A DNA stretch of 64,000 nt from Octopus vulgaris (Eukaryota), in contig OX597821.1 in the NCBI GenBank assembly GCA_951406725.2, positions 10,664,001 through 10,728,000 on the forward strand, given 5' to 3'. A program made the position numbers and the translations under genes. Shown piece after piece: positions 2,821 to 31,400 of this stretch (position 1 is its first letter; each line of letters starts with the position of its first letter). The notes below the pieces were generated by a model. It saw only the letters and a list, made by a program, of their open reading frames with translations, did not search any database and had not been told where the DNA came from.

Positions 2821-3214
2821 TATATATTCAACTGTTATCGAACTTTTTAAATGCAAATAGACTTCGGTTTAAATATTTTGATAAGTCGTTTTCCTCACTC
2901 CAGATTACTTGAAGGCGAATTGAAACCAAAGCACAATTTACCATACTACAACTACAGCGTAAATGACATAGAAATTGTATTTTCCTGTGTGCATTCCAGT
3001 AAAAAAAAATGGCATAGGCATCAGAGATTCCTTATAATATTCATAGATATATAGAGTTATGTGATTATGTTTGCTATAAATTTAAACAAATCAAAATGCT
3101 AAGGAAAAGTTTGATAAATATTTGCTCAGAGATCAGAAACGTGAGTGTTAACAAATCACTGACAGAAAACATAGAAAATACCTCTCCTTGGACACATGTA
3201 TGTATATGTAATTC

Positions 3215-22915: not shown

Positions 22916-25900
22916 TATATAATTAACAGCCATATATTGCTTAATTACAAATAAAAGATGCCATTGGAAAATGATACAGGAGCAAATTAGTTTTCCTGCC
23001 GTATCTAACATTAAAACATCGACTCACTTAAATTCCTTTTTGAAGGAGAAATAAGGAGCAACTGAGGAAGTTTAAATTAGATGTTTACTGATAATCAGTC
23101 TCTTTTTACCATTATAGCCGCAATATTAGCTGTGCTGAAAAGACTAATCATCAAATGCGTTCCAACCGTGAACAATTTAACTTGCAAATCTTTTGACCGT
23201 GTTCAGCTTTGCTCTATAGCTTAACATTTCTACTGGTAATAATGTTTTTACGCTTGATGGTTATATTACTATATTTTATTATTATCATTATACTGGAATG
23301 TTTTGTTTGTAAGTAGCTGCTCTTCGGCTACTACTATATTTCTACTAAAATATTCTATGTTGCCTTCTTTTAAATTTGTAGAGGATTCTAAATTACGTCT
23401 TTCTACTCAACAGTAGTAGGTGTTGACTGGTGTGTATGACTATTTACTGGAAATGACGGCCAAAGTTAGTATCTAATACAGTTGGCCACAATATTTTCTC
23501 CTTACAGATCAGCCGTCTTATATAGTCATGCGAGAAGCAGAAAGCCTGCTGTCCGTTAGATACTCATGCTGCACATTCCGGAATGCTCGCAGTATCATCT
23601 TGCTCGTTTTTAACCACTGTACTAAAGACGCCATAAAATGAGCAACTGATACTAAATGGTAGTCAAAGCAACCATGCAAGTGAGTACCTTCGACTAGAGA
23701 AAGCCACATACTTGTTGGGCATTACACCATTTGTAACTAAGGTCCAAAGGAATAGCAGTTTTAGGTGGCCACATCGGCATTTATTCATCTGGGTATCGGT
23801 GAAACCTAACACAAATCAGATGAAAATAAATCCCTTACTTATATATATAGCCTCGCAAGTCTTGCCATATTCTGTCTCAGGCTTGAGGCCCTTTATAAGA
23901 GTCATTATCCTTGTATCCTAGAAAATATTAGTTGCTTTGTGCATTCTTGTCAGTGTTGTAATAACTCATGACTGTTTGAGTTGTTCAAGATTCTCTTGAT
24001 ATTGTATCTTCCAGGTATCATTCCCTAGCGCTCTACAACTAAGAGATGCGTCTCAGCATGAAATTAGTGCAAACAACATTGACCACACTTCAAACTTTTT
24101 GAGATCGCCATCTTCACGAACACGTACAAAGAAGCATATTCATTAACTGACCTATACAGTATATAGCCTTTGAATGACACTATCACAAGTTGTGTTCATC
24201 TTCCTGAAGAACGTCTTGATTTTTTCGTCCCTTACTTTACCATGTAGAACTGAAGGGATCCTGATGACAATGCAACGAAGAGTATGAACATTTCCTGATA
24301 TTCCATGCATTTTGGATAGCTTCCTCCACATAGTGCAGCTGATGTGTTGTAAACCCACTGACACGGTGAGTGCATTTCGGCGTATTGAAATCGGGTGGTT
24401 GTTGTCTAGGAGGCGTTTTTTGATTAAGGAAAATTTGAAAATCGGCAAGGCCTATTCGGAATTTCTGATATAGCGTTTCTTTACATATACCGTTTCTTTT
24501 AATATATATTTCATTTCTATATCTTTCACTTTAATTTTTCCTTTTCTGCTAGCATCACGATTTTGTTTACTTACTCACATTTTCTGAAACTCCAGTTAGA
24601 AACTAAATATTCTACTAAACTAAACAGCTTGCTCCTTTCTGTTATTTAGAAATTTGTATTTAAAATGATATTCCTAAATTAATGCAGCGATAGCTAATAA
24701 TAGGAGAAATCTTTGTTTGTGATTTTAGTTTTGAAATTGGAACCACAAGTTTTAGTTTACGAATGGATTAAAATGAAGTCTTAAACTTGCACAAATTATG
24801 CAACAAGTGGACACGGAAAGCAACGAGAGAAAATAAGGGTAAATAGTATGCCACAAAAAAAAAAGAAAGAATGCAAGTAAGATAAGGTAAGAAATAGAGA
24901 AAGATAGTAAAGAACTGCAAAATTGGGGATAATATTAGAGTAGTAGAGAGAGTAACGTCAAAAATAGATAACATATTTATTTTTAAAAAGCTGTAAAGGA
25001 CAAGGAAAACATATCAGACAATATCTGAAGGAGTATCAGGAAAAGAAAGTAAAAGTAAAACAGAGACCCGACTCCGTGGATCTACCAAAGGAGTTTATTT
25101 CTACATACAGAAGAAAGACGGAAGTGATACATTTCCCAAACACATTCGTATTGTTTCAAATGTATGATTAATATTTACCACACTTTAAACGTCATCAGTT
25201 TTTATATGCATGCTTTATTTACATTATTTACAATTGAAGAAGCAGTACTAAACTGTCGCAACTTTGCGACAAGCATCAAGCGCATTCCATATTTGGGCAT
25301 TGGAGATAGCCATAAAGATAACAAAAGCTAAGGGAGATGAACTAAGGTAGAAATTGGGACAGGTAGTAGAAAAAGCGAAGCTTCCCAAACCAAACATCAC
25401 TAAGGAAGAAACTTTCGCTATCAAAAGTCTACACTGTCACTACAGAATGGCAATTCCATCATAATACTTCCAGCAGACAAGGGAATTGCTGCAGCGGTGA
25501 TGAACAAGTCTGACTACTCGGAAAAACTGGCAAGTCTTACAAGTGATGTTAGCTACAGCAAAGTAAAGAAAGACCCTACTTTGAAAACAGAGAGGAAGTT
25601 GTCCCAGATCTTGATCAAGAACAAGGATCACTTTACACTAATGAAGTACAGACAACTGACTCAACAGTACAGTAAACTACCACACATGTACGGTCTTCCT
25701 GTGATTCACAAGGATGGTATTCCGTTCAGAACTATAGTGAGCTGAAGAGGTTCAGCTTGTCATCCACTGAGCCGCTTCCTTGTGGATATAATCAGTCCAT
25801 TAGCGGGAAAGTCAACATCGTACGTGAAGAATTCCACCCATTGAATCCAACCAGATGGTGAGTTCAGATGTGATAAGTCTGTTCACCAAAGTCCCAACTT

Positions 25901-27029
25901 GTGAAACACTATCCGTGATTCAAGAAAAAATAGTGACAGACACCCATCTAAAAGAACGCACTAGTATACCAATCAGAAACTTGATGGAAATGTTGAAATT
26001 CTGTGTAGAAACTACCTACTTCAGTATGGACGCTAATATATATCGATAGTAAGAGGGTATATCTATGGGTTCACTATTATCACCGATAATAGCCAATATA
26101 TACATGGAAAACTTAGAGAATTGGGCTTTAGGATCAATAGCACTAAAACCAACCCTATGGCTGCAATATGTTGATGACACCTTCATACTCGGCCTCGCCA
26201 GGAAGATGTCTAAATGTTGTTAGATCATGTGAACTCAATAACGACATCCACGCAGTTCACAATGGAAAAAAGAAAAAGACAATCAGCTTACATTCCTGGA
26301 CGTATTAATAACACGCGCCAAGTATAGACTCAGGACATCCGTAGACCGCAAGCCGACCTTCACTGGACGAGGCCTCAGTTTCAACTCCCACCATCCATAC
26401 AGTGCAAAGATAGAGATTGCTCAGTGCCTAAAACATCGAACAATGAATATAAGTAGCGATCGTGATATCCACCACGAAGAAATCATCAAGCTTAGTAACA
26501 ATCTATTAAGCGACAACTACCCCAAAAGCATACTCTCCACTCCAGTTATGAAGAAAAGAGAGGATGAAACCAATAAACTCTCCACAGTCTGTTTGCCCTA
26601 TATGAAAGGCCTCTCCGAAAGGATACAAAAGATTTGTGGCCCATATGACATCAGGACTATATACAAATGTAATACAACACTTCGCAAATATCTCCTTCAA
26701 GTAAAACCACTAATAGAAGGGAATATGCCTAAGAACTGCATGTACTCTATCCCATGCAGCTGTAAGATGTGGAGATATTCATAAATCGGGTATAGCGATC
26801 ATGTATGGAAAAATGGAGTCTACCTGCCCCTCTGGGATGAAGTTAAAATGATAGACAGAGAACATCACTGGAAAATACGAAAACTAAAAGAACCAGCACG
26901 TATACTAGGACACAACAACCTCCTAAGCAGACGAAGTGCAGATACGCGCAGCATATGGGAACCGGTATTGAAGAAGGATAGGAGAATATTAGATTTATAA
27001 GCCCTAAAATTCACTCCCTAATTGCCCAC

Positions 27030-27100
27030 GGGCATATGGCGTATTGGTTAAGAACTCGGGTTGCTAACCCCAAGATCTGAGTTCGATTCTAGGCAGTGAC
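27030..27100 (+). promoter_or_regulatory. tRNA-like segment with Pol III A and B boxes inside the PLE 3' region
   Basis: GGGCATATGGCGTATTGG (A box), anticodon-like stem-loop CGGG-TTGCTAA-CCCC, GAGTTCGATTC (B box); starts about 30 nt after the apparent ORF stop at 26998-27000. Confidence 0.75.
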
Positions 27101-27152
27101 GTGAACAATAACAATACCTTGGGAATGAGAACCCAGGTTCGAAATTCTCCAA

Positions 27153-27200
27153 GACACCTGATGAAAGCTGGAGGGAATATAGCAGCCGAAACGGTGTGTT
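27153..27200 (+). ncRNA. Minimal type I hammerhead of the PLE pseudo-LTR (this copy probably mutated)
   Basis: GACAC-CTGATGA-AAGCTG...CAGCC-GAAA-CGGT-GTGTT; helix I GACAC/GTGTT, helix II GCTG/CAGC. The position expected to be U16.1 is G. Confidence 0.75.
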
Positions 27201-28249
27201 AACAACAAACATGATGAGGAAAAAATAGCAGTCGATTGTAAATAATGTAATTAATGTACATAAGTCCTCATCTCTTAAATATAGAACTGTATGTATGATT
27301 TAGTCAAAAGATGGAAGACAGCCTCATACCTTTTCACAGAGCCTCCGATACTGGAGACGTAATACGTGCGAATAATTGGAATGAGCGTCTTCTGCTAAAA
27401 GCAGCGAACGACTTGCTGCCGCTGATAAAACTCGAACACTAAATACAGTAAGTCTAGCAGCTTAGAAAGTATTGTATGTATGACATCAACTTCGTTATAT
27501 AACTGGAATTTATAGAAAACGATCAGCAGCATGGAATAAAATTTATTGAATTTTATTACTATTGTGTGCGTGACGTGTAACAGTGACAGGGTCTCGAAGC
27601 TGGTTTGTTAGTGCCACTGGGGGGACAAATGCGTGGTATAATCAAATTAATATTTTTCCAGCTGTCGACGATTATGAATTGGCACTCCAATATTTGACGT
27701 TTGCAAATGGGAGTTACTGAACTGAAAATCAAAACTTAGTTTACACTCTTTTATCAAACAAGACATTGCTACCGTTTCATGGTGGTCAGAGTTAAAACAA
27801 ATTAACTGTCGCCAAATATTGATAACTAGAATTAAGTACATAGAATATATAAATATATATATATATACACACACACACATACATACAAATTCGTTTGCAT
27901 GTGCGATTGAATGTGTACGTGTGTGCATGTACATATGTATATTAGATTTAAAACATGGTATAGTAATTTCTATTCATTATCATAATTTATGTAACCCGTG
28001 ATGGCATAAAATGAAATAGTTATCCTTTGTGATCTTTTTTATGCCTTTCAGTCCTGTGTGTAATGTGTTTCATAACTTCGATAAACAACGTCTGCACGGC
28101 TAATTAACCGCACATCTAATTAGTTTCGGCTCAGATGCCTAAAACCTTCTCCTTTTAGTCTAACTTTCTTCAATTATTGTTTTGAAATATATAATACAGA
28201 TAAAAGAAAATAGAATACACACATTAAATTAATAAACAAAATATTACTA

Positions 28250-28433
28250 TTATTTACATTTGACCTTGGTTCTCATTCCAAAGCTATTTTTCGATGTTAT
28301 TATTATTCTGGTCACTGCCTGGAATCGAACCCGGAATCTTGGGGTTAGTAGCCCGTGCTCTTAATCACTAAACTGCATGCCCGTCACATGGAAATAATGT
28401 ACATACTTCCTCATTTCTTAAATATAGAACTGT
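28250..28433 (-). mobile_element. 184-bp non-autonomous derivative of the PLE pseudo-LTR (inverted tRNA head plus sense tail)
   Basis: 28264-28383 is the reverse complement of 27029-27140; 28392-28433 matches 27240-27291; perfect 12-bp TSD AAAATATTACTA at 28238-28249 and 28434-28445. Confidence 0.88.
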
Positions 28434-31400
28434 AAAATATTACTAACATTTTTGAATTTAGAAAAAGAAATAAGCTCACATATAGCTTTTAAATATGAAA
28501 TTAATAACACAATAATTCAAGATTGTTAAAATCTATTTATATGTAATTTACATAATAATATATAAATTAAAGACATGGATATAATATTGTGGTGTGTAGA
28601 ACACGATAGTATCGGTTGATTTACATAATCAATAATTCGTTTCTGGTTATTCGATTAATAAAAAAACAAAAGTCGATGTTCACTCCGGTGGGTAATACAC
28701 AAAGATTTACTATTGCCCCAAAACAGGCTTTGTTTGCCTGTCACCTTAACTTTTATGATAATTCCTCAATACTGGTATGGCTTTTCTGTAGTAAATGTAA
28801 TTTATGACTAACGTATGACGATCTCTTTCTAACCACAGATCGTGCGCTGGAAATTTGTTGTTCACTTTTTCAACTTTATGAGCATAGCTGTATATTACAT
28901 ACTCTAGGAGTAGAGAGCTACAAAGTTCATGAAATAATTATATCTGATGTTGGGTTAATGTTAGCAAGTTAATGTTAGCAAGGTGAGGTGGCGAATTCCT
29001 TTGCAAGCACATCTACACAGAAATAATAAAATGTGTAGTTTATTTGAATGGTATTTAAACTAAGAAAATAATGAATCAACACTTTAATTTCATGAAGTAA
29101 TTGAAACAATGTATGGTATGTTTTACAGAAATCTGCTTCACAGCCTACTTATTCCTCTTGGTAGAAAAAAACCTATCTTTAAAAAACGTTTTCTTTATAA
29201 CATATAATTTTCACATATTTTCACATTTTTTCTGATACTTTTTTTCACAAGACTACACTTGAATATTGAATTGTCAGACACTTCATCATGGCAGTATATA
29301 ACTGATTAACGTTAGTTTTATATTTTCATCCACATGTCAACATATTTATGTCCTGTCAATTACGTTTATGTCAAAATTTAGCTGCAGTTGAATACTGGGA
29401 AGGAATACGTCTTATTCTGTATGTGTGTGTTGAAATGAGTGAAATCATGTCTTCAATGCATGTATCAGTTTAAATAATTGAAGTCAGTGTGTCATAATCC
29501 AGTGAAAATTTCTAACAATCATTATAATCTACTTCATCTTTAATAACGACCAGGAAATTCTACATCTGCAGAAGAATGTAACGATGGATTTTGTTTTCTG
29601 AAGAACTCTGCAGTTAATCCTTGGAACATGACAGCTTCAATAATCTGCATATAATTATAAGCCCTTTTTATTGGCACCATTCTTTTGCATTTTAAATTTG
29701 AGATCTATTCTGATCAATGCAAGGTAATCATTGGCCATATTGGATGGCATATTTATGGTAGAATGTAGTTCAACCATATCAGACATGTCTTGTTATATGT
29801 TTTACGTAGCTATTCACTGAATATACCTGAGTCTCCATCCATATATAAATTTCAAAACAAAAAAACAGTCATGCTTTGTGATATGCAAGACATTGTATAA
29901 AATTCTATTGCATACTTTAACAGGATTGTTCTTGTGTTAATGCTTATGAATATATCTGGCAAAGTAATTCGTAGTGAAAGCTGAATTGTTTCATTCAGAA
30001 ATGAAAAATTTACTGGAGTATGTTTGTAAATTTAAAGGTTGGTATTATATATGCTATTTATGTATCTATATTCAAATTCGATATTGTTATTTCACAATTA
30101 ATTTTTGTTTCGTGTGGCGTCTATCACAACTAAAATCTTTCATTCGAAATCCAAGTAATGTATACACTTGATATACGTAATGTGTTTACATGAACATGAA
30201 TGAATGTCTAGTGAGACTCCAATAATTTGATGAATAATTTGTCAATAAAAATCTAGCGAACAACAAATTCTTGTATTTGTTTGCTGAATTCCATACATAT
30301 AGAATAATATTATATAATCACAGTATGCAGGGCGTGGATTCATTAGATTAATAGCATTCCAGAAAAAAAAAGGGCCAGGAAGTGACGCCTAACACAACAT
30401 ATGTCTCGTGGGAATATATTTCACATTGGGCGTGTAATTGATTTCCGATATTCCTATCAATGCAGTTTAGCCTCTGTATTGTTACGATCTGGTCTCCAAC
30501 TGCTTGCGTATTTGTTGGATTATGCAAGAATTGAATGCATTGATTTGACGTATATTGCGTAATGTTCTTTGTGCATGTCCCAGTTCCAGTAAAACATTGC
30601 TGATCAATGGTGCGGGTTTATCTTTTGTGCATTAACTTCTCACGGGATATAAAGACGGAATATATATTCAACTATTCAATGCAACTCCCTACCGGATATA
30701 CACGGATAAACAGTATATGTGAGTTTGTGTGCATGAGTGTGTACAGAGAGTGAGAGAGAGAGAGACAGAAAAATATATAGATGAATATATAGATATGTAG
30801 ATAGATATATGAATATGTATATATGTGGGTGGATGGTTGACTATTTGAAGTAACTCGATAATAACAGACTACAAATAAGCATATACAGATATACATAGAG
30901 TGAGACAGGTTCGTGTTCTGTTAAAATATAATCAACAAGAAAGCATTGCATCCAGTGAGTCACAAATATTACTTAATGTATACAGTATAAAGATACGAAC
31001 TATTACTAGTTTCTTGCTCTGGAGACGCAAATTATGGCAGGTTTTAATACCACGCCTTGTGATTGCAAGCAACCCCAATCTCTGAGCACACAATTTATTC
31101 AATTTGCAAATTAAGTAGTTTGTACAAGACGGAACACGATAATAAAAGAGAGGACAGTAGATGAAAACAAGGGAATACAATAATATAAATGTGACGAAAG
31201 AAAATTATAGCTATGTTGCTTTGAGTATCAAGGTGTTAATCTAACACTGGAAGCAGGTGAACAATGTTTCGGTTAGAGTTATTCTTGAGGGTAGACCGTA
31301 TCATCGAAAACACTAGTTAGGGTGTGCATGTGTATATGAACGCTTTTCTGTATGTATATACACACAGATACGCACACACAAACACGTACACTCATACACA

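Follow-up and report, generated by a model that had tools for sequence, protein, structure and literature searches.

A Penelope-like element of Octopus vulgaris that codes for its own RT carries a tRNA-derived head within its own terminal repeat, an arrangement that is family-wide, real and unusual. Two copies of the family lie in the window, by which we mean the whole stretch of 64,000 nucleotides analysed (contig OX597821.1, positions 10,664,001 to 10,728,000). The usual view pairs SINEs with LINEs and takes a Pol III head to mean a non-coding repeat; here a coding Penelope element carries such a head, and it appears to spin off thousands of SINE-like copies. Comparison of these copies makes it fairly probable that the head serves as a promoter, that RNA starts there and that reverse transcription starts internally at the tail, giving the SINE-like copies.

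Layout of the two copies in the window

The main insertion, spanning window positions 25215-27291, is a 5'-truncated and decayed element of the Penelope/Poseidon type. Its ORF (25235-27000, plus strand), recognised by translation, comprises an RT and a partly deleted C-terminal endonuclease of the GIY-YIG type and closes with a TAA stop at 26998-27000; it contains many stops and frameshifts, is truncated 5' at 25235 and has lost ~62 nt in the endonuclease region. The ORF is followed, from 5' to 3', by a tRNA-like head, an AAT spacer, a minimal hammerhead and a tail ending at 27291. This is the order proposed in an earlier, sequence-only reading of the window, to be corrected in that the ORF is broken and the ribozyme of this copy mutated. 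Upstream of the ORF, a short arm in inverted orientation (25215-25237, minus strand) represents a piece of the tail that ends at the short RT start site and is identical at 21/23 positions to 27232-27254 reversed; 50/61 head-to-head pairs elsewhere are arranged likewise. Pfam searches with three fragments of the window returned no relevant match.

A degenerate 11-bp direct repeat (9/11 alike) at 25206-25216 and 27290-27300 brackets the main insertion and is likely a decayed target duplication. To the left of the insertion, at 24900-25160, lies a lysine-rich reading frame with one stop, which matched only itself among the fetched loci and is possibly the remnant of another element. A ribozyme-like string at 25234 was rejected, being ORF coding sequence.

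The head (27030-27101, plus strand) starts thirty bases past the ORF stop and was delimited by a box scan, by alignment with genomic tRNAs and by a pile-up of 5' ends at -19..+4. Its A box (27037-27047) and B box (27081-27089) form the sole such pair in the 64 kb window, where 0.03 would be expected (30 shuffles). A 12-nt palindrome (27023-27034, without strand) overlaps the start of the head and forms the centre of many head-to-head junctions. Over its full length the head aligns collinearly with tRNA genes from this genome, the comparison covering Lys, Thr and one Ser-like gene only; the best match was tRNA-Thr(TGT), with 42-44/75 positions and a z-score of 4.5-5.9, and 0/300 shuffles were as good. 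ARAGORN and the Rfam tRNA model at its gathering threshold found no match in the window, and Rfam searches of six copies at E<=5 gave neither a tRNA nor a hammerhead match, only microsatellite-driven ones. Folding of the head produced no cloverleaf, and the z-score was not significant for the head alone or the ribozyme alone. Because tool calls and a cloverleaf fold are both absent, we regard the head as tRNA-derived and not as a tRNA gene. It is a putative type-2 Pol III promoter and transcription start. Elsewhere, 7/10 lower-scoring matches to the tRNA model (L351-L359) were divergent tRNA-Lys(TTT)-like copies, possibly pseudogenes or the heads of another SINE family.

The segment that follows (27102-27152, plus strand) combines the AAT/AAC microsatellite spacer (27102-27120) with the likely ORF start ATG (27125-27127). 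Spacer length ranges from ~23 to 880 nt across copies, with long examples at L111, L116, L118 and L119; since it varies between copies, the family seeds AAT microsatellites. The longest spacers are periodic in part only, and other insertions may lie inside them.

The minimal type-I hammerhead (27153-27200, plus strand) has CTGATGA at 27158-27164 and GAAAC at 27188-27192. In the window copy it reads GAAACGGT, and the family majority reads GAAACGTT. G10.1 is lost in the window copy, which has two core changes (changed positions, 27166 and 27194) and is predicted to be dead. The definition of the minimal motif was taken from the accessible text of PMC4209133, in which the palindrome is needed for dimer cleavage; the family majority has an intact core with the palindromic AACGTT. 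A generic minimal-hammerhead pattern led to this same Penelope family in 27 of its first 30 loci. Matches to the pattern outside the family were seen at L235, L240 and L243, and ~10/404 matches are expected by chance.

The tail (27201-27291, plus strand) contains a stem-loop (27213-27220/27265-27272) and has two fixed 3' ends, at ~27258-27264 and at 27291. Both ends recur in the second copy, at 28250-28434, where a minus-strand arm of head and spacer (28250-28384), its ribozyme deleted and its end at the short RT site, is joined head-to-head to a plus-strand arm consisting of the tail up to the long RT site (28388-28434). This copy is without an ORF and is bracketed by an 11-bp target duplication (28239-28249 and 28435-28445). 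The recurrence of the linkage that had been claimed for 28250-28433 is accordingly confirmed as to family, head and spacer, but the ribozyme is deleted and no ORF is attached.

The head within the terminal repeat of a coding element

A search with nothing but the ORF 3' end gave 29 other loci, of which 23 read past the stop into the head and six break before the stop, two of these rejoining inside the head; passage from the stop to the ribozyme without a head was seen in 0/29. Of the first 30 exact matches to the head on contig C1, among them two near-duplicates, 26 enter the family's own body and four end in or before the spacer; the head sat on another shared body in 0/30. The head is integral to the pLTR and not a SINE inserted by chance, as the sequence-only reading had held; its own counter-expectations, that most copies would lack the tRNA segment or that the head would occur on unrelated bodies, were not borne out in these samples. 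At two loci ~0.85 Mb apart on contig C1 (L120 and L124), near-identical insertions with near-identical flanks lie in opposite orientation, pointing to segmental duplication.

In the 2.8 Gb genome, exact matches numbered 1987 for the head, 742 for the ORF-head junction, 4666 for the ribozyme (3' half of the majority hammerhead), 5746 for the tail and 81 for the tail-ORF junction, while reversed-sequence controls gave 0 for all five probes. Dividing exact counts by the exact-match rates in sampled copies (14/86, 9/35, 10/72 and 51/141) yields rough estimates of ~12,000 heads, ~2,900-3,000 ORF-attached heads and ~30,000-31,000 repeat arms. Short copies outnumber attached ones by ~3-9 to 1. Copies are 90-93% identical to the family majority, and because they are 7-10% diverged from it the burst is old. 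A single majority sequence fits both the 25 attached and the 63 solo units, with variation mainly at CpG, and no separate SINE lineage is visible among them.

RVT_1 was detected above the cut-off in relatives of the ORF, with the sister copy L192 just under it (E 2.7e-6). An open stretch of 569 aa in the sister copy contains motifs of both the RT and the C-terminal endonuclease and shares 67% identity with a database protein of 806 aa. DKG and a C-terminal CVYSIP..YKGET motif can be read in its translation, and we take the endonuclease to be of the GIY-YIG type from the general features of that family; Pfam did not match GIY-YIG. No CxxC-rich linker between RT and endonuclease was seen in the same translation. 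An extra Zn-finger linker would mark Neptune/Nematis, according to the clade features in the accessible text of PMC8557442, and the lack of one in this translation tentatively points to a place for the element in the Penelope/Poseidon clade.

The family follows the single-ORF plan of EN+ Penelope-like elements, RT followed by a GIY-YIG-type endonuclease. It also has a pLTR derived from a partial tandem, in which the tail directly abuts the ORF 5' end (the 81 exact tail-to-ORF junctions, and full-length copies), as well as the minimal type-I pLTR hammerhead, the inverted upstream arm and the optional 30-40 nt tail of these elements. The natural copy L164 reads SSSLKYRTVLSNRYG across the tail and matches the N-terminus of P0029; as translated, the tail in tandem copies is the predicted coding sequence of the ORF N-terminus. 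Of the 7 natural junction copies in which an ATG preceding the ribozyme was located, 3 have it in frame with the ORF, and the frame is open in L164. It is therefore likely that the start of the ORF encloses the ribozyme, as in anole Poseidon. Candidate ORF copies numbered 2599 for the 3' part vs 355 for the 5' part, in line with the usual 5' truncation. A metagenome scan for relatives gave three weak, uninformative matches.

Copy ends and the origin of the short copies

The 5' ends of the arms were mapped for the first 100 tail matches on contig C1: 33 end in the body, 26 in the AAT spacer, a second strong end hot spot with no promoter, and 41 reach the head. Two of the 41 were dropped as partner-arm matches, and one fold-back end at -19 was scored as a start-site end; the remainder comprise 10 arms that end within the head, 20 that end at -19..+4 and 9 that continue into the ORF. 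Of the 29 arms extending as far as the start of the head, 20 thus end inside a 24-nt interval around tRNA +1, a loss rate of 4.9% per nt vs 0.3-0.5% elsewhere (P ~1e-12). Fold-back forms account for ~9 of these 20 start-site ends; counting just the blunt ends at -4..+4 leaves 10/29 (P 4e-7). A ribozyme-anchored sample of 57 arms comprised 21 start-site ends, 4 inside the head, 2 attached, 17 in the spacer and 13 in the body; 21/27 head-reaching arms start at the boundary, or 18/23 without four doubtful joins (gaps >300 nt). In a head-anchored sample, 27/30 start there. Most of the sampled arms lie near the start of contig C1, and every sample required an exact anchor, which favours younger copies. 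The boundary corresponds to +1 of the aligned tRNA genes, the position at which a type-2 Pol III promoter would start. In this way genomic fossils by themselves indicate where transcription likely starts, and the pile-up fits internal initiation by a Penelope RT.

The 3' ends are bimodal, with 22 and 29 of 57 arms ending at two sites ~30 nt apart that flank a stem in the tail. Among 61 head-to-head pairs, which include some alternative pairings within one locus, 50 combine one long with one short end, and 32 have a 9-13 bp target duplication, vs 3/302 for mismatched flanks. Such a pattern would follow from cleavage of both strands by the Penelope protein and initiation at two internal sites. 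Anole Poseidon, as described in the accessible part of PMC11167929, starts reverse transcription internally in vitro and inserts without need of the ribozyme. Solo pLTRs produced by recombination were rejected as an explanation, since the short copies have two arms and duplications of their own.

The idea that short RNAs are mobilised by the PLE enzyme accords with these Penelope-type ends and duplications, but the copies do not support self-cleavage as the step producing that unit, nor retrozyme-like monomers as their main source. Most short copies would have been made from uncleaved RNA, because the head is kept upstream of the ribozyme. Some 6-8/100 arms start at body positions 84-93, beside the predicted cut at 85/86 (P 0.008-0.0004, before discounting of two microhomology deletions), and cleavage may occur in a minority of templates. 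Head-started copies entering the ORF 5' end were found at L175, L176, L168 and L061. Junction copy L178 joins the ORF 3' end, the repeat and the ORF 5' end in one continuous stretch; therefore, templates starting upstream of the head also existed. Three chimeras of unit and ORF 5' sequence (L168, L169 and L186, on C3 and C6) share the same ORF break point, two of them rejoining the head start; the shared break is possibly a microhomology hot spot or the mark of a small non-autonomous subfamily.

In the mechanism that we favour, with the head as promoter and an internal RT start in the tail, the repeat upstream of the ORF would be transcribed from the head through the ribozyme and the tail into the ORF. 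The protein, if it acts like that of anole Poseidon, would bind the ORF-5' RNA, and reverse transcription would begin internally at the tail. An RT start at the first repeat would copy 270 nt back to +1 and leave a short copy, and a start at the downstream repeat would leave ORF-bearing copies, usually 5'-truncated. Most short copies would be dead ends because they are without the ORF-5' RNA. The ribozyme, lying within the ORF start and needing a dimer, would cut a minority of templates at most.

The same boundary could arise without a promoter if the tRNA piece were a captured passenger, Pol II transcription took place from elsewhere and cDNA folded back or annealed at the 12-nt palindrome. 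We consider this unlikely, even though the palindrome (27023-27034) has 2131 exact matches, many of them paired on both strands, and the ORF-attached flank resembles a decayed inverted head start, as a captured insertion would. Rotifer Penelope elements likewise have palindromic pLTR 5' ends, together with Pol II-type promoter motifs, in the accessible text of PMC3846280. However, 10/20 start-site ends are blunt at -4..+4 and without palindromic extension, the boundary coincides with tRNA +1, and the RT passed stronger stems in the tail and the ribozyme of the same RNA. As an internal control, the spacer contains a palindrome of similar build, with a slightly weaker fold (-3.5 vs -5.4 kcal/mol at the head start), that stops just 3/71 arms vs 20/29, which makes the passenger explanation less probable. 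Quite improbable, in our assessment, is a self-standing SINE or retrozyme lineage like Sm-alpha, with its own transcription, self-cleavage or circularisation and mobilisation in trans, that joined the coding element secondarily. The excess of short copies would suit such a lineage, as would the few 5' ends just past the predicted cut and the recurrent chimeras of unit, short ORF-5' piece and unit (L168, L169, L170 and L180), which are possible non-autonomous masters. Yet solo and attached units show no diagnostic differences, copies retain the head upstream of the cut and tandem monomer arrays are rare; moreover, the tail is the ORF coding start, conserved in protein relatives, so the body is the element's own repeat.

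A more far-reaching version of the promoter mechanism, in which the element is autonomous and coding, its whole 2.9-kb RNA is made by Pol III from a captured tRNA promoter, it generates its own SINE family in this way and the latter would be the first Penelope-mobilised tRNA-SINE, we regard as tentative and rather doubtful. The copies that start at the head and enter the ORF would suit it. T4 runs are absent from the sense strand over ~2.7 kb of the majority profile, which lacks two ~38 nt segments; a Markov model would predict 3.1 (P 0.04) and synonymous-codon shuffles of 715 codons 2.45 (P 0.046). The window copy has 0 T4 runs in 2057 nt vs 23 A runs. The sense strand is also without G4 runs, which weakens the argument. 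As to a headless control Penelope family for this test, a protein search gave the present family only (30/30 loci) and the generic ribozyme pattern almost this family only. The absence of T4 is a weak hint at full-length Pol III transcription. Contigs of four runs, which we guess to be RNA, cover the unit, and four bridge the tail-ORF junction; starts, strand and level are not readable from them.

Relation to known elements

The separate parts of this arrangement are already known, namely minimal pLTR hammerheads, Sm-alpha, retrozymes as PLE derivatives and Pol III heads in non-autonomous LTR elements. Full-text searches, which did not extend to subscription papers and repeat libraries, listed no paper on a coding PLE with a tRNA-derived head in its pLTR and none on a Penelope-mobilised tRNA-SINE; the family may already be annotated under a different name. 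The word 'hammerhead' does not occur in the supplement to a 2026 octopus repeat paper. Automated repeat libraries would probably split the family into 'SINE' and 'Penelope'.

Three tRNA-derived SINEs of octopus, OK, OR1 and OR2, were reportedly described by Ohshima and Okada in 1994. By description only, the present unit resembles them in its tRNA-derived head, its length of ~270 nt and its high copy number. OR1 and OR2 are cited as CORE-SINEs in the accessible sources, whereas the tail of the present unit is that of a Penelope element and not of a LINE; set apart from OK, OR1 and OR2 by description only, it could still be identical with a named SINE family. The SINE2-type feature of a tRNA-derived A/B-box head at the 5' end of short non-coding copies is present. 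A LINE-derived or simple-repeat 3' tail and a separate lineage were not found in this family, whose 3' ends are Penelope RT start sites.

Comparison with the remaining systems draws on the accessible parts of the sources cited. The closest counterpart is the anole Poseidon element PAc (PMC11167929), which shares the single ORF with RT and C-terminal endonuclease, a minimal hammerhead pLTR overlapping the ORF start, the optional 30-40 nt tail with two RT start sites, the inverted upstream arm and AT-rich targets. Unlike PAc, for which no such head is mentioned in that text, the octopus pLTR opens with a tRNA-derived A/B-box head. The Penelope pLTR promoters described so far are Pol II-like, with TATA/Inr motifs (PMC3846280). 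A Pol III promoter derived from a small RNA is found within the terminal repeat of TRIMp3 elements (Cassandra, Helenus and Ajax; PMC10886601), but these are non-autonomous LTR elements, whereas in octopus the coding element itself carries the head; the author of the TRIMp3 study expects autonomous partners to use Pol II, without a shared repeat.

Animal non-LTR retrozymes (PMC7229834; bioRxiv 10.64898/2026.07.22.740005) are, like the octopus unit, short hammerhead repeats and have been proposed to be non-autonomous pLTR relatives; the terms 'tRNA', 'pol III' and 'promoter' are absent from the accessible text of the bioRxiv paper. Retrozymes form tandem arrays and circular RNA, whereas the octopus copies are dispersed and start at the tRNA head. 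Head-to-tail tandem monomers set by cleavage were not the rule among the copies sampled, which are mostly dispersed head-to-head pairs, the sole multi-unit locus seen being L167, with several direct partial units. The schistosome repeats Sm-alpha and Sj-alpha (PMC6765202) likewise place a Pol III-type promoter before a type-I hammerhead in a short repeat. Sm-alpha, however, is described as tandem and released by cleavage, with no coding partner named in that text, whereas the octopus unit serves a coding element as its terminal repeat, contains a ribozyme of the minimal kind and enters the genome uncleaved, as head-to-head pairs. In the octopus family there is a concrete path by which PLE pseudo-LTRs could give rise to repeats that combine a promoter with a hammerhead, such as Sm-alpha and the retrozymes.
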